Below, one piece after another: positions 8,446 to 63,065 of a DNA stretch of 64,000 nt. The position numbers and the translations under genes are program-made. The first letter of the stretch is position 1. Each line of letters starts with the position of its first letter. A model generated the notes under the pieces. The model saw only the letters and a list, made by a program, of their open reading frames with translations. It was not told the DNA's origin and ran no database searches. Source of the stretch: an uncultured virus (IMG/VR IMGVR_UViG_3300027977_000020) (taxonomy: Duplodnaviria > Heunggongvirae > Uroviricota > Caudoviricetes); the IMG/VR virus record IMGVR_UViG_3300027977_000020, one strand, 5' to 3'.

Positions 8446-9626
8446 ACGACTTACTTTTCACAAACCTCCAAAAGTTTCGCGGTTCCTTAAACAACTCATT
8501 TTTAGAACGTGAAGAAATTATTGATGGACTCTTGGCTTCTGTAATCACAAAACAGAATACGTTTTTGTTTGGATTACCAGGAACAGGCAAGTCTGAATTA
8601 GTTCGTGCCGTATCAAACGGATTTAAAAACAGTAGATTCTTTGGTTACTTGTTATCGCCCACGACAGATCCTTCAGAACTGTTTGGCCCTGTGGCAATAT
8701 CAAAGTTGTTGAAAGACGAATACACAAGGGATGTACAAGGATATTTGCCTAGTGCAAACATCGCATTCCTTGATGAGTTGTTTCGTGGTAGCTCTGCAGT
8801 GCTTAACTCACTGTTAACAGTGTTAAATGAACGCACGTTCAATAACGGTAAAGAACTAATCCACACGCCAATTCAATCCGTCGTTGCTGCTACAAACTCA
8901 TTTCCACAAGAGGAATCGCTTCAAGCGTTTTGCGATAGGTTTTTATTTAGACCGACAGTGGAAGCTTTAAAGAAACCAGCATCCCGTAGATTGTTAGATC
9001 TATGGGCTTTAGGTTTGAAGAAAAGGCCAAACGTTGAATCAGAGCTAACTTACGAAGACTTAATTGAACTACAAGAATCCTTAAGTGAAGTTAAAGTCAC
9101 AGATGAGTTTCTAGATAAATTTTCACAGGTCTTTGATCTACTTGCTTCCAGAGGAATAACTATTAGCGACAGGCGTCGCGTTCAGATACTTAAGTTTATT
9201 AAAGGCTGGGCCCTTGTGCAAGGAGATGATACAGTGTATGCTGATCATCTACACAAATCATTGGTTCATATTATATATCAGAACGTGGACGATATAGGAG
9301 TTATAAAAGAAGTATTACAACAAGCAATACCCACGGCTGAAAAAATGATTATTGATATAAAGCGAGCGTTAGGCGGGATACTAAGTGAGTATCACAGTAT
9401 TAACGGCCAAGAGTGTAAGGCTGTAAGCGATCTGAATAAACTCGTGAGTAAGTTACGTAAGACACATAACGATGTGTCGGTCTTAGATCAGAAACTTTCA
9501 TCCATTATGGAATCGAGTGAGTATCGTATCTCAGCGACCACGAGACAGGAAGCCACTAAGGTGATCCAAACTTTAGACCAGACCAAACAATTGATTGCAA
9601 AATCAATTTCGGAGCTATGCAAATGA
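8442..9626 (+). CDS. MoxR-family (RavA-like) AAA+ ATPase
   Basis: Walker A GLPGTGKS, ELFGP, Walker B FLDE, LNER, AATN, DRF and ISDRR motifs. Confidence 0.9.
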   Translation: MNDLLFTNLQKFRGSLNNSFLEREEIIDGLLASVITKQNTFLFGLPGTGKSELVRAVSNGFKNSRFFGYLLSPTTDPSELFGPVAISKLLKDEYTRDVQGYLPSANIAFLDELFRGSSAVLNSLLTVLNERTFNNGKELIHTPIQSVVAATNSFPQEESLQAFCDRFLFRPTVEALKKPASRRLLDLWALGLKKRPNVESELTYEDLIELQESLSEVKVTDEFLDKFSQVFDLLASRGITISDRRRVQILKFIKGWALVQGDDTVYADHLHKSLVHIIYQNVDDIGVIKEVLQQAIPTAEKMIIDIKRALGGILSEYHSINGQECKAVSDLNKLVSKLRKTHNDVSVLDQKLSSIMESSEYRISATTRQEATKVIQTLDQTKQLIAKSISELCK

Positions 9627-11170
9627 ACTTAAAAACAGAGCAACAATTTATTCGACTCATAAACAACGAGCCTCTTGTTATTTCGGTCTCAGCGCTTTGT
9701 GATTTTCTATGGGATGACTTTGTTCGTGATGCACAACCAACAGTTAGATACTTAGTTGATTACTACAACATATCTCAGATATCACGATTTGGTAAGGAAC
9801 TATTTGATCTCTTGTATAACGGTGGTGCGGTTACTCCTTTAATAAGTTTAGATGAAGTCGAAGATTACTTTCGACTCAAGCAAGATGGTCACAACCCAGC
9901 GCATCCAGCGGGATATAAACCTGAGAATGCTTTTTGGGTGGGCTTGTTCAATGACGTGTGCGAATCCCCGATGTGGCCTAACTTAGCTGCTTTATCATGC
10001 GGTAATCAATTCAATGCAGGTAACAATGCAGTGAACATAATAAACAAACTAAGCGAACTTATAGAAAAACAAATAGAAGAAAATGAATTACTTGGTCAGG
10101 CACTGATTAAAGGAGGAAAGCAGATACAAGAACTGCGAGATAAATTTATGAAAGCTATGCAAGAAGGCAATGAAAAACAAGCGGCTGAATTTAGACAGCT
10201 AGGTAAGGAACTAGGAAAACAAATGGAGAAAACTTTTAGTGATGTGCGATCTCAAATGCAGCCTGCCGTATCAAACGCAATAGATAAAGTAAACGAAGAA
10301 GCAGAAGAGCTAAAGGAAGCACTCGATACTTTAGCAGGTACTAACAAAGGAGTCGGCTCCCACAGTGACGATTTAGAAACGAAGAGACACTTGGCACAGA
10401 CACTGAAACAAAACAAACGTTTGAAACAGCTGATTAGTAAAATTGGAGCCCTTAGAAAAGCTTGGAATAATAGGAAACGTGCTAAGCAAGCACAAAGTAA
10501 TTACAGTGACATTGTGGGGGCTAAGTTCTCGGATGATATTAAGAATATCTTCCCTGTTGAATTAGCTCTAGCTGGAGACACTATAGGACGGACTTTGTTT
10601 GCTCTCAAATATTCACAGAAAACTTTATTAACTAAAGACTACGAAGCAAAGATAAAAGAAATATCTAAAGGGCCCGTTGTTATGTACATAGACGTAAGTG
10701 GATCAATGTCTGGAAGCTCAGAGATATGGAGCAAAGCAATTGCTTATGTAACTGCTGAAGAATGTTTAGAGCAAAAGCGAGAACTTCAAGTTCATCTGTT
10801 TGATACAGTGATACAAGAAAGCATAGTTTTAAAAAGTGATCGAAACAATAACGAAAAACTCTTAAACTTTATGATGACCTGGTCTACAAGAGGTGGTACA
10901 GCCTTTTCAGCTGTATTAAACCACGCGCTGACTAAGGCTCAGATTGATGCCAAAGCCGACGTTCTACTAATCACGGATGGTGAGTCTGAAATATCAGATC
11001 CTCTTGTACGCCGTTTAAATGAATTTAAAGACGAAACATGCCTTCAATGGAATACTTTTTGTATAGGTCAAAAAGCTAACGTCCTTCATAAATTTAGTGA
11101 TGAAGTTTTCTTAGTTAATGTCAACGATGACCCTAAGTCTGTTGAATTATTTCAAACATCCTTAAGGTAA
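9623..11170 (+). CDS. VWA-domain protein (ViaA-like)
   Basis: MIDAS motif DVSGSM, GGTAF and ITDGE; adjacent to the MoxR ATPase. Confidence 0.9.
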   Translation: MNLKTEQQFIRLINNEPLVISVSALCDFLWDDFVRDAQPTVRYLVDYYNISQISRFGKELFDLLYNGGAVTPLISLDEVEDYFRLKQDGHNPAHPAGYKPENAFWVGLFNDVCESPMWPNLAALSCGNQFNAGNNAVNIINKLSELIEKQIEENELLGQALIKGGKQIQELRDKFMKAMQEGNEKQAAEFRQLGKELGKQMEKTFSDVRSQMQPAVSNAIDKVNEEAEELKEALDTLAGTNKGVGSHSDDLETKRHLAQTLKQNKRLKQLISKIGALRKAWNNRKRAKQAQSNYSDIVGAKFSDDIKNIFPVELALAGDTIGRTLFALKYSQKTLLTKDYEAKIKEISKGPVVMYIDVSGSMSGSSEIWSKAIAYVTAEECLEQKRELQVHLFDTVIQESIVLKSDRNNNEKLLNFMMTWSTRGGTAFSAVLNHALTKAQIDAKADVLLITDGESEISDPLVRRLNEFKDETCLQWNTFCIGQKANVLHKFSDEVFLVNVNDDPKSVELFQTSLR

Positions 11171-11830: not shown

Positions 11831-11886
11831 AAAGGTTGCAAGCTTAGTATGTAAGTGTTTAACTGCTCTTGGTCATCACCTCCTTT

Positions 11887-12693
11887 ATGAAACTCTCTTT
11901 CAAACTTGGCGACGCTTTGCTAGACACAGCTGAAGCCAACGCATTGTTTTCGGCCACAGAAACCAAAGCCTCAATAACGATCAACATTCTTGATCACATA
12001 AACTTGCGCGACGTTGACGCGAAAAAACTCTTTTCTCTTAGTGTAGAAAAGAAGAACCCTACCCTGGCTTCTCTTGCCGCTAAATGTGCGATTGAAGGTC
12101 TCACACCAGGTAAGAAGCGCCGCACTGCTCCGATGAACCGCATCGTAGACATTGCTCCCAGCAAAAGTTTCTCTGATCCAGACGAAGCTGTTGCTGCTAT
12201 AAACCAGATTGACCACATCAAAGGACTTGGAGCAGCAATGCTCTTGGTATCCCTAAGAGACGGACACAAAAAAACTCTCCGCCAAGTAGCTGTTGAAGCG
12301 GTTAACTACCTTGCCTATCGAGGTGAAGTGAGTGCCGACTCAGACTGCTTTAGGGGATTCATTAAGAGCGAGAACGGAAGCTACCGTCCAATCTCTAAGG
12401 CTCCTGGAGTCGGTAGGAACGAGGTCTACCACGCGTCGCCTATGTACATTGCTCTCCGTGATGGCCTAGCTTTGCTGGCTTCCTGGGGAATGGTTCGCAT
12501 GGAAAAAACAGTTGAGTTTGGTTCTAAAGATTCTGAACCCAATGGGAACTCGGATCTATTGCGTCGCACTGTGTACGCTGTGGAACTGACGCCCGCAGGA
12601 CTTACTGTGGCTAATCAATGGGGAGACATCAGCTACTTTGTAACCACACGTTGGAGCCAAAGGGTCCGTACCCGTAGCGTATATAGTGTGTGA
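11887..12693 (+). CDS. Hypothetical protein, possible winged-helix DNA-binding domain
   Basis: C-terminal L..WGMV...VYAVELTPAG resembles a wHTH wing; followed by a terminator. Confidence 0.65.
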   Translation: MKLSFKLGDALLDTAEANALFSATETKASITINILDHINLRDVDAKKLFSLSVEKKNPTLASLAAKCAIEGLTPGKKRRTAPMNRIVDIAPSKSFSDPDEAVAAINQIDHIKGLGAAMLLVSLRDGHKKTLRQVAVEAVNYLAYRGEVSADSDCFRGFIKSENGSYRPISKAPGVGRNEVYHASPMYIALRDGLALLASWGMVRMEKTVEFGSKDSEPNGNSDLLRRTVYAVELTPAGLTVANQWGDISYFVTTRWSQRVRTRSVYSV

Positions 12694-12711
12694 AGCCTAG
12701 CCCACCTGTTT

Positions 12712-12736
12712 GGGCGTCCTCTGGGCGCCCTTTTTT
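12712..12736 (+). terminator. Intrinsic terminator
   Basis: GGGCGTCC-TCT-GGGCGCCC followed by T6. Confidence 0.75.
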
Positions 12737-12739
12737 ATT

Positions 12740-14635
12740 ATGAATTTATTGTATTTAACATCACAAGATAAGTTTGATAAAGCTTTAGTTCAATTAGATA
12801 AGATCAAAAAACTTTGCATTGACACTGAAACAACTGGCTTAGACGCTCGTATAGCAGATGTTAGGTTAATTCAAGTTTGCTCTACAGAAGAAAACGATGA
12901 TGACAGGGACATCTACGTTTTTGATATGTTTAAGATTCCAGATCACAGCAAACTAAAAGCTTTTATTGAAAGTCGCGAGATGCTCGTGGCTCACTCAATG
13001 AACTTTGATTTCCAGTTCCTATTAAAAATAGGAATTGATTACAAGAATAAAATATTTGACACTTATATTGCGGAGCGTTGTTTACGTGCTGGCTTTAAAG
13101 AAAAACGAATAAGTCCGCAAGCTAAAAAACCTTACTTTGCAGACGTGTCGTGCAGCTTAAAAGCTGTTGTGAAACGACGACTAGATATTGAACTAGACAA
13201 AGAAGAACAAAGATCTGACTGGTCTAAGGAAGATTTGAAGATTGAACAGATTGAATATGCAGCTAAAGACGTAGACCTCCTCCCACGGGTGGCGGCCAGC
13301 CAATTAAAAGAACTTGTGGAGGAGTCTTTACTTGATATTTATTCACTTGAGTCTAAGTGTATTCGATCTGTAGCTACTATGTGTCACAAAGGATTTAATG
13401 TAGATGTTACTAAACTAATGGAACTAAAACTCAGCATTAGTAAGGAGCTTACAGATAAGACTCTAGAGTTTTGTACGGCACTAGACAGTGCACTTCCTGA
13501 AGAACTTAAACTCCCTAAAAATTTAGATGGAACGTTAGCTATAGGGAAAAAACCGAAGAAAGAATTTAACCCTGGATCAGGAGTGCAGTGCATCCGACTG
13601 TTTCAGGAATTAGGGATTAATCTGCCTGTGGATGGAACAACTGGTAAGCCTACACTTTCCCAGGTTGCTTTAAGTGAATTCGATAGCGAGGACGAAATAC
13701 TAAATATGTACAGAAAGAGAGTGAAAGTAGAAACTAAATTAGAGCACGTAGAAAAACTTATAAATAACATAAATCCGATAACTCAACGAATCCACAGCGG
13801 TTATAACCAATACGGTGCTAATAGCGGTCGGTTTACGTCCTCAGGCGCAAAAAAACAAACAGCTACTAAGGAGAAAACAGAGTTTGCAATTAACGCTCAA
13901 CAAATACCAAGGAGCAACGAATTTAGAAGTTGTTTCAAGGCACAAGCTGGTTACAAACTTGTAATTTGCGATTTTTCGCAGATTGAACTCCGGTTAGGGG
14001 CAGAATTGATAAAGATCCCTCAAATGATCGAAGCTTTTAAAAACGAACAGGACTTACACACGGTTACTGCGAGTTTAATTTACAAAATTCCTGTAGCGGA
14101 GGTACAAAAACACCAGAGGCAGGAGGGAAAAACACTTAATTTTGCTTTGTTGTATGGAATGGGTTATCGAAAATATAAAACTTATGCGGCCCAATCAGGC
14201 AAAATTATCTCGTTATCAGACGCTAAGGTAGCGCACACAGCCTTCCACACAGCATATCCACGGCTGCGTGAGTGGCACCGCGAAAGATCGGCCATGGTTG
14301 CTGATGGCTGGTGCTATGTTCGCACTCCGTTGGGTAGGCGACGACTTTTGTCTTATGACGATGCTCTGATGACGGCTTGTGCAAACACGCTAATTCAAGG
14401 AGCGGGTGCAGACATACTTAAGCTTTCTTTGGCTGAACTAGGTAAGTATCTAGACGAAGAAGCCTCATTGGTGGCTTGTGTGCACGATGAAATTGTCTTG
14501 GAAGTTATCGAAAGCAAAGCAAACCAATTTAAAGAAATTCTTGAGAAATCAATGACATTGGCAGCAGAGACTATTTTAAAAGTTGTTCCAGCTAAAGCCG
14601 ACGCTTCTATTGCAGACACATGGGCAGAAAAATGA
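12740..14635 (+). CDS. polA: Family A DNA polymerase with 3'-5' exonuclease domain, no 5' nuclease domain
   Basis: ExoI DTET, ExoIII YAAKD, motif A DFSQIELR, motif B KTLNFALLYG, motif C VHDE. Confidence 0.95.
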   Translation: MNLLYLTSQDKFDKALVQLDKIKKLCIDTETTGLDARIADVRLIQVCSTEENDDDRDIYVFDMFKIPDHSKLKAFIESREMLVAHSMNFDFQFLLKIGIDYKNKIFDTYIAERCLRAGFKEKRISPQAKKPYFADVSCSLKAVVKRRLDIELDKEEQRSDWSKEDLKIEQIEYAAKDVDLLPRVAASQLKELVEESLLDIYSLESKCIRSVATMCHKGFNVDVTKLMELKLSISKELTDKTLEFCTALDSALPEELKLPKNLDGTLAIGKKPKKEFNPGSGVQCIRLFQELGINLPVDGTTGKPTLSQVALSEFDSEDEILNMYRKRVKVETKLEHVEKLINNINPITQRIHSGYNQYGANSGRFTSSGAKKQTATKEKTEFAINAQQIPRSNEFRSCFKAQAGYKLVICDFSQIELRLGAELIKIPQMIEAFKNEQDLHTVTASLIYKIPVAEVQKHQRQEGKTLNFALLYGMGYRKYKTYAAQSGKIISLSDAKVAHTAFHTAYPRLREWHRERSAMVADGWCYVRTPLGRRRLLSYDDALMTACANTLIQGAGADILKLSLAELGKYLDEEASLVACVHDEIVLEVIESKANQFKEILEKSMTLAAETILKVVPAKADASIADTWAEK

Positions 14636-56785: not shown

Positions 56786-57792
56786 TCAAGCGTCGAAAGA
56801 GTAGGCAACGGTGACGAAGTCAGCGTTCAGAAGTTCGAAACCTGCGTACAGGCTCCAAATCATCATGATGAAACGGCTGAAGTCATCGTTGTTGTTGAGT
56901 AGCACTTGGGCGTTGTTACCGCCAATGCCAACTCCAGTGGACTGCGGACCAAAGAAGATACCGATCGCAGAGTTGTAGCTCTGTGAACTGGATGCAATGG
57001 TCGCAGCCTGTGTTTGTGTAGGCATGTTGGTGCTTTCGAAGAAGCGCACACCTTCAAACACAAAGCCCGTGGGCATAATCGGTTCGCCAGCCACGAAGGT
57101 AGCTTGACCGAAGCCCTGACCCATGTACAGAGCAGCGTTAGGCTGCATGCCGGACATAAGTGGGTTGATTTGACCGTTGCCAGGGTAACGAGCAACTTCA
57201 CGGAAGTCACTGTTCTGACGCAGGTGCATCAAGAAGGTAGGATCGCAAACACAGCGATAGAAACCGTCTTGGAAGGTAGGAGTGTTCCTCTTACGCAGGC
57301 TCTTCACCACGCGCAAAAGGTCATCCTTAACGTCGAATTTGGCTTGTTCGGCGTTGGTATAGCTAAGACTTCCAACGGCTAGATCGCCAGGGAAGTAGTA
57401 ACCACCTTGGGTGTCAGAAGACTGACCCTTTGATACTGCTTTAAGGAGTTCATTGATGAACACCCGATCACGCCAACGACGATAGTCGTCGAGCAAAGTC
57501 AGGCTACCAATGGATTGGTGGAAAGTTGTGAGGCTGCCGGTATCCAGCAAAAGACGCTGGGCAGTGATCAGAGTCTCGCGAGCAATTTTGAAAGTGCTTG
57601 GCTGAGTTGGATCACTAGGGTCAGCAGGGCCGGTGTACTCCTTAAGAGTCACCTGAACCTTGTCCTTCACAATGTTGCGGCTGTTTGCAGTACCGATTGT
57701 TTGCTCGGCAGTGCGCTCGCGAGATTCTTTGGAGCCAGGGTTACCGAAGAAACGGTAACGATCAAGCTGAACCGTCTGGCCGGGTTGTTTTG
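56786..57792 (-). CDS. Major capsid protein, exon 2
   Basis: KQPGQTVQLDRYRF..., VTLKEY, GVRFFES and DDFSR segments resemble HK97-fold (N4 gp56-like) capsid proteins; joins exon 1 in frame (371 aa total). Confidence 0.8.
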
Positions 57793-58789
57793 CCTGAAAT
57801 GCTTCGATGAGCACCGTGAGGTTCTTTATCCTCACGTAACATCAACTTAAGGACGTTGATGAGTAGACTATATCATCACCCACAGCAAGAATTATCTTCT
57901 GTTTGGGTGTTCCGCGCTCGTGTCACCTTATCGGCTTCTACAACAAATTTGTTGCGGTCAGCCTCGCTCCACTTTGACTTACCTCGATTAGTTCGAGTGT
58001 CGTAGCGAAGGTCGAACTTGTAGCTCATGGCTTTACATCCGTATGGTTTTAAAGCCTCTACGAACAAACGAGCTTGAGTGCCGTTACCACGAAGATTCCA
58101 TTTATTTGGACTCTTCGTTTTCATCGGCTCTCTCGGAGTTAATGAGGCTCCGGTTAAGCTCTCGATCCAATCGGACACAAATAAAGCTGTGTCATAAGGA
58201 ACGTATAAAGCCAGCTCTACAATACGCTCCCGTACATAAGGTTCTCCTGTTTGCGTGGATTGACCACGCTTGCGAAGATGAAGGTTTCCGTCGTCCATAT
58301 AAAGAACGGCTAATCCCTCTAAGCCAATATCCCGTAGAAAAGAAGGTGTGAGCACCTTTATTCCTTGTGGGTATAGCTCCTTATATAAAGGAAGCAGTAG
58401 CTCTTGTTGATTAGACCACCACTGACAACCAGGAAAACTTCCTGATTGGTTTGTGCATACTCTATCCTTAACTGGCTGTTTTATTCCAAAAATTCTGTTT
58501 AAGCGTCCCACTTTCCAGCGGAGATACTCAAACTGTTTTTTGGAGTGCGTGAGCACGAGATTCGGATAAGTAACTTGATGCCTTAGACATCCGTCACCTA
58601 TACAAACACCTTTAAGGAACGAGCGGTCGCTTCGAGAGAGCATTCGAGCAGTGTTAGTCGTTGAACCTTCCAACCATTTCGGGTTGGCTTGGCTGCTGAT
58701 TGACCTCCCTTACGGGTCCGGCTTTCCAGCAATTCACGGAATTGTTCGACCGAGCTTTCACTCGGAAGTTCCCAGACCTTAGCAGGTCA
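57793..58789 (-). mobile_element. Group I intron (997 nt) in the major capsid gene
   Basis: P AATTGCTGGAAA, Q AATCAGCAG, R GTTCAACGACTA, S GATATAGTCT; P1 with U-G at the 5' splice site; P2 CCGAGT-GAAA-GCTCGG; P9 hairpins; terminal G; splicing restores ...VHDF-S-KQPG. Confidence 0.92.
57876..58643 (-). CDS. Intron-encoded double-motif LAGLIDADG homing endonuclease
   Basis: FLKGVCIGDGCL and GLAVLYMDDGNL motifs; inserted between R and S (P8 region); ATG 58643 preferred because 58673 lies inside the ribozyme core. Confidence 0.88.
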   Translation of the reverse strand: MLSRSDRSFLKGVCIGDGCLRHQVTYPNLVLTHSKKQFEYLRWKVGRLNRIFGIKQPVKDRVCTNQSGSFPGCQWWSNQQELLLPLYKELYPQGIKVLTPSFLRDIGLEGLAVLYMDDGNLHLRKRGQSTQTGEPYVRERIVELALYVPYDTALFVSDWIESLTGASLTPREPMKTKSPNKWNLRGNGTQARLFVEALKPYGCKAMSYKFDLRYDTRTNRGKSKWSEADRNKFVVEADKVTRARNTQTEDNSCCG

Positions 58790-58898
58790 AGAAGTCATGA
58801 ACAACCACAGGTTCCGCAGCCATCTCGACGATGTATGCGGGGTGAGGACGGTAAAGTTCTGCACCAAGAATCTTCGGAAAATCGTTATCGATAAACAT
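58790..58898 (-). CDS. Major capsid protein, exon 1 (not in ORF track)
   Basis: MFIDNDFPKILGAELYRPHPAYIVEMAAEPVVVHDF plus one T (109 nt). Confidence 0.85.
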
Positions 58899-60418: not shown

Positions 60419-61336
60419 CTAAGAAGCATCCATGAACAGGAGCTTGCTGCGAAGAGCTTCGGGCCCAATCTGACTGAGATAACGCCAGGCGTTCTCTGGG
60501 CTGCGATTCATCACGTCACCAAAAGTCTCCCACTGTTGTTGAGGAGCTGGTGCCTGAGTAGACCCACCGGCATTAGCAGGGGGTGCGGGCATATCGTACC
60601 TGGGCTGATAAGCCTGGGGAGCTTGTTGACCTTGTCCGGGAGAGTCAATGTCCACAGGATAGACTTCAGTGAAGAAGCGGTCAGTATAGTTGGCTAAGTG
60701 ATCGGGATTGGTCAAGATAGTCTCCATAGCGTCGTGACGCAGTGCGAGATTATCCATACGACCCGCCTGATCCATCAGCATGTCCTCAAGAGCACAAGAG
60801 TACTGATTGAGAATGCCTGGAGCCTCGATACCGAAGTGGTTAACTACGGCGTGAGTTGCGGGGCTTAGACCGTGTGGGCCGCTTTGTGGGGCCGTAGAAG
60901 TCTGCGAGGAAACCTGGGTCGGTGAGACGCTGGTAGGCAAGGTCTGCGCTACCTGCTGTGCCTGGTAAGCCCAAGGTTGGACCTGTGAAGCCAGATTGCT
61001 CTGTTGAGTAACCTGCGGCTGTGCCACCTGGTAAGGCGACGGTTGAGCCTGGCTGGGGTACGGCGGGTTGATCTGCGTAAGCACCCGCTCCAGTGAACCC
61101 ATCGCTGCTTCCCACGGATTGTTGGGGGAGGACGGCGACGTTAACTGGTTGTACTGGCTGTTGGTAGTAGGCCCCGTAGTCGGTATTCCCGGCGACGGCA
61201 ATTGGGCTGTAGCTGCCGAAGCTACCGCCGGGGTAGGCGTTTGGGTTACCCACTGGGGGTAAGCGGTTGAGCCCTGGTCCGAGGCTACTGCCTGGGAGAC
61301 CGGGCTCGGGGTCGAAGCTTGGATCTGCTGGCTCAT
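60419..61336 (-). CDS. Putative scaffolding protein
   Basis: Q/P/S-rich N-terminal half, helical C-terminal half; lies between portal-like and capsid genes. Confidence 0.65.
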   Translation of the reverse strand: MSQQIQASTPSPVSQAVASDQGSTAYPQWVTQTPTPAVASAATAQLPSPGIPTTGPTTNSQYNQLTSPSSPNNPWEAAMGSLERVLTQINPPYPSQAQPSPYQVAQPQVTQQSNLASQVQPWAYQAQQVAQTLPTSVSPTQVSSQTSTAPQSGPHGLSPATHAVVNHFGIEAPGILNQYSCALEDMLMDQAGRMDNLALRHDAMETILTNPDHLANYTDRFFTEVYPVDIDSPGQGQQAPQAYQPRYDMPAPPANAGGSTQAPAPQQQWETFGDVMNRSPENAWRYLSQIGPEALRSKLLFMDAS

Positions 61337-63065
61337 AGCTACCCGAGTAGGTTAGTTCTTCCGCGAGATGGTCGAAAGTTCTATAGATTAGCGGAGTGAT
61401 ATTCAATCTCGGATCAGCTGCAAGCGGTTGGTTAGGCGCAAGCGGATGAGGAGATTGCAACATCTGTTGTAATAATACCAGAAATTGTTGCATAGCTGAC
61501 TGAGTTTGTTGAACCATACGGAAAGGGAAACCCCTCAACATTTCAGCCCGCTCAGCATCAGTTTTTTCTGGAAATAAGAACTTCAACGCTTCTATACTAT
61601 CAACTCCCAGCTCTTGTAGGTTACGAACAACAATAGATTTTTGGTTTACATCGTAAGCCGTATCTTCATAAACATCACCTTGATACCTATAAGTAACTGT
61701 ACGATCACCATCTTCTGGTAACCCAATAACCCCACGAGGTACTTTATTCTCTGCCAGGGCCACCTTCATCACCTGATTTAGCTTCCCTTCAAACTTTACA
61801 TTTGCAATTTGATACTTTTCAATTGCTTCAGGTGTTTGTTCTGTCGGAGGCTTTGGTTCTTTTAAACCCGAAGCAGCTATAAATGACTCTCGAAAAATTA
61901 ATTCTTGGTGATAAATCATCATCTCAAGGAGACGATTAAATCCATACGCAAGAAATGATTTATTTTTTCTTAATGCTGTGGCCTGAGCTCGACCCATCAA
62001 ACCTTTAATTTCAGTCGCAGTGGCACCGGCTGAAATTGAAATCTCATCAACACCACCTAATGCAGTACGTATCTCTTCTCTTAACAACAAAAGATATCTG
62101 CTCATGTCCCCGTTAACGGGGTCAGGTGTCATATAGCCCACACGGTCGGAAGGTTCTACGTTCGCAATAATTCGCGGAACACGCAGGCCACCACCCATCG
62201 AGGCGCCGAAAGGTTCACTTACTCTTGTCGACGGGCTATCGACTCCAGAAAAACCACTCTGACTGCTGATCGTAGGTCTAAAAGTTGACTGACTATCTGA
62301 CGCTTCGACAAGATCACTACGTGGACGCGAACTAATTAGTGTTGGATTACCAAAAAATTCAATGTTCTTAGAAATGTTCCGTGCAAGTTGGTCGTGGAGA
62401 ACAATTTGCTCCATAAAAGGATCAAATTCGCCTTCTCCCTCTGTTCCACTTGCATTTGGTTTGTTTAATACCTCGACAGCTGGTATAAAACCAAGCATGT
62501 TAGGCCTTTTTTTACTTGGAGTTAAAATTGCACCTGGTTCAAGCTCAAAACTTAATTCACTATCAGTTTCGACCTCACTAATCTCTTCAGCTGTAATAGA
62601 AAGTCGAACGTACCGTTTATTTTGCCCGTACGCATTACTAGGTAGACCTAAAGTACTGTTTTTAACTTTATAGCTGTAGATAATGATTACTTCTTCTACT
62701 TCACCGTTTACATCGTGATAAACGCGATATTGATTTTTGTTAAAAAAGTAAATCTGGTATTTTAACTTTGGGTCAGGGCGAAAATAAAAAAGACCAGCAC
62801 CATCAATTAAGAAATTCCTGATAATCGAAGGAAATCGAATATCAATCTTATTCAGCTTTATGACGTTGTCTAAAAACTTTGAACGACTTTTATACGTATC
62901 CTGATCACAGTAGAATGTTACACCCTTCTTAATCATAAGAAGAGTCATCTGCTGTAAATGGCTTAAAACAACCATCGTGGCCGATTGGTTGCTTCGATCC
63001 TGGGTGCGTGAGGCCTCCAGGATCTCATTAAACCGTTTTCTGGTCTCAGTTGAGCTCGCAGACAT
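60840..63065 (-). CDS. Putative portal protein
   Basis: 741 aa; IEFFGNPTL, IRTALGG, SAGATATEIK and G...LLEM segments and position fit a portal. Confidence 0.7.
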   Translation of the reverse strand: MSASSTETRKRFNEILEASRTQDRSNQSATMVVLSHLQQMTLLMIKKGVTFYCDQDTYKSRSKFLDNVIKLNKIDIRFPSIIRNFLIDGAGLFYFRPDPKLKYQIYFFNKNQYRVYHDVNGEVEEVIIIYSYKVKNSTLGLPSNAYGQNKRYVRLSITAEEISEVETDSELSFELEPGAILTPSKKRPNMLGFIPAVEVLNKPNASGTEGEGEFDPFMEQIVLHDQLARNISKNIEFFGNPTLISSRPRSDLVEASDSQSTFRPTISSQSGFSGVDSPSTRVSEPFGASMGGGLRVPRIIANVEPSDRVGYMTPDPVNGDMSRYLLLLREEIRTALGGVDEISISAGATATEIKGLMGRAQATALRKNKSFLAYGFNRLLEMMIYHQELIFRESFIAASGLKEPKPPTEQTPEAIEKYQIANVKFEGKLNQVMKVALAENKVPRGVIGLPEDGDRTVTYRYQGDVYEDTAYDVNQKSIVVRNLQELGVDSIEALKFLFPEKTDAERAEMLRGFPFRMVQQTQSAMQQFLVLLQQMLQSPHPLAPNQPLAADPRLNITPLIYRTFDHLAEELTYSGSYEPADPSFDPEPGLPGSSLGPGLNRLPPVGNPNAYPGGSFGSYSPIAVAGNTDYGAYYQQPVQPVNVAVLPQQSVGSSDGFTGAGAYADQPAVPQPGSTVALPGGTAAGYSTEQSGFTGPTLGLPGTAGSADLAYQRLTDPGFLADFYGPTKRPTRSKPRNSRRS

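Follow-up and report, generated by a model that had tools for sequence, protein, structure and literature searches.

A very probably mobile group I intron with a LAGLIDADG endonuclease gene interrupts the major capsid gene of an uncultured S-EIV1-related freshwater phage

The major capsid gene in a 64,000-nucleotide (nt) stretch of DNA from an uncultured tailed virus (IMG/VR record IMGVR_UViG_3300027977_000020), referred to here as the window, is divided by an insert that we regard with high confidence as a mobile group I intron. The virus is an uncultured freshwater relative of Synechococcus phage S-EIV1. The element is real, and comparisons with related sequences make it very probable that it is functional and recently mobile, as evidenced by the anatomy of the gene, its exact junction, selection on RNA pairings, intact catalytic motifs in the encoded enzyme, a patchy distribution among related phages and recombinant flanks.

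The capsid gene and its intron are read on the minus strand. The coding region begins with an ATG at 58898, which has the motif AGGA 8-11 nt on its 5′ side, and runs for 36 codons up to a T at 58790; from there the sequence continues TGACC and reaches a TAA 4 codons on. Exon 1 (58790-58898) is 109 nt long, comprises 36 codons and the first base of Ser37, and ends CAT GAC TTC T. The intron (57793-58789) spans 997 nt, with a U at -1 (58790) and a terminal G at 57793. Exon 2 (56786-57792) starts CA AAA CAA and provides bases 2-3 of Ser37, codons 38-371 and the stop codon. When 58898-58790 was joined to 57792-56786 by script, the 109 + 1007 nt gave 371 codons and a stop codon. An earlier note on this DNA, made from the sequence alone, had the exon, intron and junction coordinates and the 371-residue product exactly right. 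It had also stated that the list of open reading frames (ORFs), which was produced mechanically, misses the true N-terminus, and this is borne out: the list has a 265-residue ORF between the exons (57876-58673) and a 349-residue ORF (56786-57835) that starts with a GTG within the intron. Because exon 1 specifies 36 conserved residues and exon 2 lacks a start of its own outside the intron, a full-length capsid protein is possible only after splicing, as the note had reasoned.

Homologues that naturally lack the intron identify the same junction. With exon 2 (334 residues) as the query, 866 proteins were found at E ≤ 0.001. The top four full-length homologues (P0001-P0004), which are contiguous, 371 residues long and 89-96% identical to exon 2, open with the 36 residues of exon 1 and continue uninterrupted through ...VVVHDF-S-KQPGQ.... 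The comparison with intron-less homologues that had been proposed as a check thus reads straight through the junction and keeps the N-terminus of exon 1; RNA rules (U at -1, terminal G) predict the junction at the very point that is uninterrupted in these proteins. The start of P0005 is a translated intron tail, and P0005 is therefore another intron-bearing copy. Among the best 80 of at least 598 IMG/VR relatives, which are the top of a ranking and not a random sample, 64 run from exon 1 through one codon into exon 2 without a break and 13 have an insert between the exons; the other 3 stop short of exon 1, and all three have the endonuclease ORF. The exon 1/intron/exon 2 architecture occurs in 52 loci (31 distinct sequences) on many IMG/VR contigs, and exon 1 is conserved and in register in every intron-bearing locus.

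The insert matches RF00028, the group I model used, in two halves. The 5′ half (58810-58460, 32.7 bits) reaches from P1 to the 5′ strand of P7, with an E-value of 9.9e-06 in a 4-kb search and 1.6e-4 in the whole 64-kb window, where it is the only match at E ≤ 0.01 on either strand. The 3′ half (57960-57840, 17.7 bits, E 0.3 in the 4-kb search) covers P8, J8/7-P7′ and P9. The same two half-matches are found in the nearest record, G001, which shares the architecture. The P, Q, R and S elements reported in the earlier note correspond to the Rfam-aligned P4, P4′, P7 and P7′ segments. Four core motifs of the ribozyme family occur in one copy each in the window, both strands considered, and all lie inside the intron.

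Covariation was analysed in 23 distinct aligned ORF-bearing introns, namely that of the window and those of 22 loci. The structure was written from the window sequence and consists of 77 pairs in 15 helices, all 77 of which form in the window. Over the 23 introns 97.6% of cells are paired, compared with 31.6-43.7% in controls with the 3′ strand shifted by 1-3 columns, a comparison biased by the derivation of the structure from the window; counts of double changes are free of this bias. Changes on both sides are observed at 34 of the 77 pairs, versus 3-7 in the slid controls and 12.7 ± 2.0 after shuffling (none of 500 shuffles reaches 34), and the covariation score is 0.212 versus 0.030-0.046 when slid. 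Compensatory changes keep 15 helices paired across 23 variants, which requires selection on the RNA. The covarying helices are P1, P2, P3, P6a, P8, P9, P9.1 and P9.2. Judged from these alignments, the insert is a group I ribozyme, and self-splicing is predicted.

In P1 (58769-58793) the final four bases of exon 1 and the initial five of the intron pair with the internal guide sequence across a 6-nt loop. The pairing claimed beforehand, exon UUCU and intron UGACC against GGUCUGGGAA, forms at 9 of 9 positions in the window, including a U.G pair at the splice site (T at 58790 with G); 5 of the 9 pairs show both-side changes among the 23 introns, and 95.2% of cells are paired. In the P2 hairpin (58750-58765) both-side changes are found at 5 of 5 pairs, and 88.7% of cells are paired, the unpaired ones being rows of the register-shifted type B described below. 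The 5′ half of the core (58655-58741), delimited by Rfam alignment and covariation, comprises the 5′ strand of P3 (58741-58735; 2 pairs with both-side changes), P4-P5-P5a-P6-P6a (58731-58665; 4 such pairs in P6a, P4 and P6 invariant) and the invariant 5′ strand of P7 (58659-58655). Covariation is clearest in P3, where U-A, C-G and further variants occur at both outer pairs; ORF-less relatives inserted elsewhere have the two P3 strands replaced together. The 3′ half of the core (57866-57927) contains P3′ (57916-57910), P8 (57908-57878) and J8/7 with P7′ (57870-57866), and is followed by the peripheral hairpins (57799-57861) P9 (57861-57840), P9.1 (57836-57815) and P9.2 (57814-57799), with both-side changes at 4, 5 and 2 pairs, respectively.

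A 4-bp stem between P7 and P3′, here named P7.1, closes the ORF-bearing loop; its strands (58650-58653 and 57927-57924) are paired in 23 of 23 introns. ORF-less relatives have a hairpin of about 30-40 nt between P7 and P3′, where the window has the ORF loop. An extra helix in this position is a mark of subgroup IA. P7.1/P7.2 are named among class features in PMC3984707. A long-range stem (GCUCG/CGAGC) around the ORF was also considered and dropped, as changes in the relatives are not compensatory in that register.

The loop between P7 and P3′ accommodates a gene for a LAGLIDADG homing endonuclease (57876-58643, minus strand; 255 residues and a stop codon). The mechanical ORF extends upstream to an in-frame TTG at 58673. 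Translation more likely begins at the ATG at 58643, since it is invariant in 23 of 23 aligned introns, the TTG is located in P6a, and database gene calls of the enzyme (P0270) likewise give 255 residues. The protein matches PF03161 (LAGLIDADG_2) with an E-value of 6.4e-13 and 49.4 bits, against a cut-off of 25, and phrog_11023 at 3.2e-11; together with the RF00028 half-matches and the covariation, this agrees with the earlier description of a group I intron carrying a LAGLIDADG gene. Two motifs, G16-D17 and M116-D117-D118-G119-N120, are unchanged in all nine sequences compared, the most distant of which is 32% identical, and each includes an acidic residue, which points to a monomeric double-motif enzyme. 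The last 17 or so codons overlap P7.1′, P3′ and P8, so that the tail of the protein is partly dictated by the ribozyme. Of 16 representatives read, 14 have an intact ORF (241-266 residues). Wherever a locus has both exons and a relative of the enzyme (39 loci), the enzyme is located between the exons. In locus L057 (2150-2437) the ORF is cut to 96 residues in an otherwise window-like intron; from its sequence, this is a decaying homing gene.

An AlphaFold2 model of the enzyme (predicted local distance difference test, pLDDT, 78.3; predicted template modelling score, pTM, 0.76) features the order alpha-beta-beta-alpha-beta-beta-alpha twice, and helices 4-15 and 108-118 each precede beta strands. 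At E ≤ 0.001 the model matches 138 PDB chains, those listed being LAGLIDADG enzymes or maturases, such as the bI3 maturase. The best matches are I-WcaI (6x1j; E 3.5e-11) and I-SceI (1r7m; E 1.4e-10). Sequence comparisons are less telling: a phmmer search of the enzyme against PDB sequences found no match, and a profile of nine enzyme sequences found 6x1j alone, weakly (E 0.028). I-WcaI and I-SceI are monomeric double-motif enzymes, like the model, with template modelling (TM) scores of 0.62-0.64 by query and 0.70-0.72 by target (0.64/0.72 for I-WcaI), a root mean square deviation of 3.8 Å over about 216 columns, and only 13-16% sequence identity. Both come from fungal mitochondrial introns; the presumed target of the window enzyme, unlike theirs, would be a protein-coding phage gene. 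The enzyme is I-SceI-like, and the assignment of cleavage activity and of a target site to it is predictive.

The identification of the interrupted gene, called a major capsid gene in the earlier note, is consistent with both family and structural matches. Exon 2 matches phrog_1357 ("major head protein") at 1.3e-23, P0002 matches it at 1.4e-22, and P0088, a relative with 68% identity, matches PF13252 (Phage_capsid_3) at 25.8 bits, against a cut-off of 23. The fold was examined on P0002, a natural intron-less homologue with 95% identity, and not on the joined product of the window. The P0002 model (24 relatives; pLDDT 75.9, pTM 0.74) retrieves solved capsids with Foldseek (best E 2.3e-12; HK97, 8.6e-09); the matches listed are from cyanophages P-SCSP1u, Pan3, A4 and Pam1, from Ralstonia phage GP4, N4 and HK97, and from one archaeal tailed virus and one phage-inducible island. 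This model identifies the host gene as a major capsid gene of the HK97 fold. A portal-like gene lies just upstream (60840-63065). Exon 1 alone found no PHROG family; PHROG coverage was discarded as a test of exon 1, as contiguous homologues themselves align to phrog_1357 only from residue 34.

S-EIV1, an arctic lake isolate, is the only phage record with a match to the capsid protein (66.8% identity). The window is present in 14 lake-water DNA runs, at 0.95-0.99 of sampled words, although 12 of these are possibly source samples. The S-EIV1 match and the lake-water metagenome runs suggest a cyanobacterial host. In the S-EIV1 record (L125; KJ410740, 60784-62010), the capsid homologue matches at 60970-61986 on the plus strand, and the stretch is annotated as two "hypothetical protein" coding sequences, one of which is on the opposite strand; the record thus seems to lack an annotation of the capsid gene.

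Among related phages the intron has a patchy distribution. A maximum-likelihood tree built from exon 2 without its first 60 nt (95 distinct rows) requires at least 18 changes of the intron-less state, 15 of which are forced by well-supported (starred) branches; the tree mixes loci found with the capsid and enzyme queries, and intron-bearing alleles are over-sampled in it. The allele of the window (L001) is sister to the intron-less L002. The two differ at 15 of 115 nt in the flanks of the intron and at 13 of 981 in the rest of exon 2, with no differences from +24 to +416. In contrast, the intron-bearing L084 differs from the window at 1 of 115 flank nt and at 146 of 981 in the rest of exon 2; its intron differs at 17 of 997 nt, and exon 2 shows its first difference at +27. 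This contrast between flank and rest indicates that the gene of the window is a recombinant. Judging by the alignments, the gene has two ancestries, one shared by exon 1, the intron and about 25 nt of exon 2 and the other by the remainder, which is exactly the pattern expected from homing with co-conversion. The mosaic does not tell intron arrival from intron replacement in the sister, being compatible with both. An ungapped comparison with L084 and L002 upstream of the capsid ATG was meaningless because of indels. An arms race at the target codon was considered and rejected. In 58 distinct intron-less genes Ser37 is encoded by TCN in 30 and AGY in 27, and other conserved serine columns are also split (TCN/AGY 32/26 at codon 133, 23/35 at codon 201 and 40/18 at codon 57), so that no site-specific signal can be attributed to Ser37.

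In the mechanism that we propose, the late transcript would contain exon 1, intron and exon 2, and the stop codon 4 codons into the intron would halt ribosomes arriving from exon 1. The RNA would fold from P1 to P9.2, an external guanosine would attack after the U at 58790, and the exons would be joined after the G at 57793, giving a message for a 371-residue HK97-fold capsid protein. In co-infecting relatives without the intron, the 255-residue enzyme would cut the capsid allele near codons 36-37, and repair from the intron-bearing genome would copy the intron and short exon flanks into it (homing).

Several points weigh against this interpretation. Splicing and cleavage are predictions from sequence. 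Both RF00028 scores are below the gathering threshold of 50 bits, as the ORF insert of about 745 nt between P7 and P3′ breaks the model. Shuffle counts overstate the significance of the covariation because the relatives are mutually related, and the slid controls are fairer; P4, P6 and P7 are invariant and therefore uninformative either way; and the exchange of both middle pairs of P7.1 is seen in L123 alone (1 of 23 introns), thus depending on one sequence. P10, as read from the sequence, would amount to only about 2 bp. No Shine-Dalgarno-like motif was seen just 5′ of the endonuclease ATG, and residues 214-255 of the enzyme model, the last 42, are of low confidence. Finally, the mosaic demonstrates recombination at the intron borders without showing the recipient allele.

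Three other explanations were weighed against a functional mobile intron. The intron might splice while its LAGLIDADG protein is no longer a homing nuclease, being a decaying gene or mainly a maturase, with ordinary recombination accounting for the distribution. The activity of the enzyme is a prediction, the ORF of L057 is truncated, and ORF-less derivatives exist, one of which (L121) still has a 3′ remnant of the ORF; LAGLIDADG maturases are also known, with bI3 among the fold matches and Thermotoga named in PMC3984707. However, both catalytic motifs are invariant in all nine sequences, most representatives retain an intact ORF, and the recombination borders are tight around the intron (downstream at about +24 to +26), as break repair at the insertion site would produce. 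We therefore consider this explanation unlikely.

The suggestion that the insert is not removed, and that a dead or split capsid gene in a defective genome yields the 349-residue GTG-started product or two polypeptides, is very improbable. It can appeal to the presence of that ORF on the mechanical list and to the fact that no spliced RNA was seen. Assembled contigs of three metatranscriptome runs and one DNA run contain no exon joints, but these contigs have gaps and are uninformative on splicing and expression; the RNA contigs cover only pieces of exon 2 and, in run X15, 58452-58695 inside the intron. The maintenance of pairing by compensatory changes, the conservation of exon 1 in register at every intron-bearing locus and the recovery of nearly the whole stretch from lake water speak against a defective gene. 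An intron mis-joined into the capsid gene during assembly would be conceivable for a sequence of uncultured source. Its probability is negligible, given that many contigs and G001 have the same architecture and that run X13, a DNA run carrying no flag as a possible source, yields a contig over 56786-58713, from exon 2 through most of the intron.

The introns of the relatives, which mostly belong to the same ribozyme family, occupy at least seven sites in the first 108 capsid codons. Sites and registers were read from the sequences and are given in window codon numbering; the covariation counts above cover ORF-bearing introns. ORF-less introns are inserted inside codon 3 (L069), inside codon 31 (L017, L086, L088 and L089), inside codon 89 (L121 and L123) and between codons 107 and 108 (L123). 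Between codons 18 and 19, L069 has a different intron of about 930 nt that carries another LAGLIDADG ORF, while the intron of L076 between codons 48 and 49 encodes an enzyme that is only 31% identical. The remaining site, at codons 36/37, is that of the window. Relatives may have 2-3 introns per capsid gene, with three in L123 and two each in L017, L069 and L121. The relevant stretches of relatives with introns at these sites are L069:1150-2560, L017:1559-3060, L076:732-1850, L121:2708-4300 and L123:1061-2910. The ORF-less codon 89 intron of L121 (4000-4260) retains about 48 nt of the 3′ end of an endonuclease ORF, and looks like a deletion derivative of an ORF-bearing intron sitting at a different site. 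The protein library also includes 38-61-residue proteins (P0176, P0202, P0204, P0211, P0217, P0224, P0231, P0241 and P0259) that match only capsid residues 1-30 to 1-48; these are probably exon 1 stubs from intron-bearing contigs, ending at different sites.

At the window site, four splice registers are found within 4 nt. Types A and C share the position of the window and need a TCN codon for Ser37. Type B (L028, L033, L038, L044, L068, L106 and L113) is located 2 nt upstream: the exon ends ...GACTT, Ser37 is AGC, the intron is 995 nt long and the enzyme is 81-93% identical. The L115 intron is displaced 1 nt upstream, and that of L123 2 nt downstream. In every register a U precedes the cut, a G ends the intron and the guide sequence fits its own exon end. 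The terminal U and G are found in every related intron with borders read (registers A, B, C, L115 and L123, and the extra introns of L017, L076, L121, L123 and L069). A wider interpretation, possible though rather doubtful at present, is that mostly one ribozyme family colonised the capsid gene repeatedly, the different sites and the registers with matched guides arising through re-targeting of the guide by reverse splicing or intron sliding and not only through homing, and that the I-SceI-like enzyme also serves as a weapon, destroying the capsid gene in co-infecting relatives without the intron.

The ribozyme and the enzyme have different affinities among known systems. The P3-P7 core (about 90 nt) finds 97 phage records at 72-78% identity, including DNA-polymerase introns of Bacillus phages and introns of Pseudomonas, Campylobacter and Escherichia phages, and the RNA is therefore of ordinary phage type and not organelle-specific. 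The earlier note had called the intron organelle-like; this is not supported for the ribozyme, and only the enzyme looks organellar, its nearest solved structures being I-WcaI and I-SceI. Phage replication-gene introns, such as those between split DNA-polymerase ORFs of Bacillus phages, share with the window intron the extra P7-P3′ stem and the P9.1/P9.2 extensions; T4 td-type IA2 introns offer a further comparison. Such replication-gene introns interrupt genes of DNA metabolism, whereas the window intron resides in a late structural gene. Multiple group I introns in one gene, as in L123, L017, L069 and L121, are found in Twort, the gene and enzymes of which differ from those of the window; the window itself has a single intron.

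Phage introns mostly carry GIY-YIG, HNH, PD-(D/E)xK or EDxHD enzymes (PMC3984707), in agreement with the claim of the earlier note that enzymes other than LAGLIDADG prevail; replication-gene introns feature HNH, GIY-YIG or no enzyme, in contrast to the LAGLIDADG enzyme of the window (PMC3984707). The rarity that the note implied for LAGLIDADG introns in capsid genes, however, is not supported, given precedents in mycobacteriophage LittleE and in crAss-like phages (PMC3706429, PMC7886860). The capsid gene of LittleE has an intron with a LAGLIDADG ORF that is spliced in vivo, as proven by reverse transcription PCR and N-terminal sequencing, and a capsid-gene intron in lactococcal phage Tuc2009 is cited in the same paper (PMC3706429). 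The LittleE intron resembles that of the window in its length of about 0.8-1 kb, the U before the 5′ splice site, the terminal G and the LAGLIDADG-type ORF, as well as in the existence of a related ORF-less intron in another late gene and in its presence in only some members of the cluster. The two differ in host lineage and in that the ORF is on the bottom strand in LittleE and on the sense strand in the window. Moreover, the LittleE intron is called "most likely" group I, whereas the group I structure of the window intron is backed by covariation and its splicing is predicted.

Group I introns are also present in capsid genes of crAss-like phages of the Delta and Zeta groups, where several inserts leave one capsid gene in five fragments and a figure legend mentions a LAGLIDADG intron-encoded endonuclease/maturase (PMC7886860). 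These are gut Bacteroidetes phages, the introns of which were recognised by protein domains, whereas sites in the family described here are mapped to the base; unlike the crAss-like capsid introns as described, those of the window's relatives mostly belong to one RNA family. Jug phages have an average of 18.5 introns per genome, with LAGLIDADG genes (PMC12880540). The gp210 intron endonuclease of PhiPA3 can cut the intron-less allele of a co-infecting relative and lower its yield (PMC11620839). It is likewise encoded by an intron in an essential phage gene, and its role in competition was demonstrated experimentally, whereas such a role of the window enzyme is hypothetical. None of the papers listed in our literature searches, which did not extend to the S-EIV1 paper itself (PMC4542036), describes a capsid-gene intron in S-EIV1-like or other cyanophages.

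Introns in capsid genes are in themselves nothing new. This kind of element being known, the value of the case is in the system, that is, in the population, and not in a new principle. Its interest is a population-level picture of many sites, shifted registers and mapped recombination borders. As a natural population, the lineage combines alleles with and without the intron, several registers, copies that are decaying or have lost the ORF, and a mapped co-conversion border, and it allows tests of homing, of intron loss and of a possible endonuclease-mediated competition between phages. There are also consequences for annotation. Gene callers break this capsid gene into a 39-residue stub, an endonuclease and the N-terminally wrong 349-residue ORF, and in S-EIV1, the only cultured relative, the capsid stretch carries the two hypothetical coding sequences described above. 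Since capsid genes serve as phylogenetic markers of cyanophages (PMC8557907), primers and marker surveys will misread intron-bearing alleles.

Elsewhere, the window contains tail-fibre, endolysin, DNA polymerase and primase genes. A 517-residue ORF (9617-11170, plus strand) beside a phrog_24053 match has a weak HNH endonuclease match (phrog_1314, 2.4e-07) and may be a free-standing nuclease gene among replication genes. The DNA polymerase ORF, in the region of 11869-12693 and 12710-14635 (plus strand), matches only positions 660-1233 of phrog_17; a 274-residue ORF with no PHROG match (11869-12693) ends 16 nt before the polymerase ORF (12710-14635), and the polymerase may be split or two-part. 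Next to the capsid gene, a 305-residue ORF rich in Gln, Pro and Ser (60419-61336, minus strand), for which no PHROG match was found, overlaps the 3′ part of the portal-like ORF in another frame and could be a scaffold-like protein or a chance ORF.

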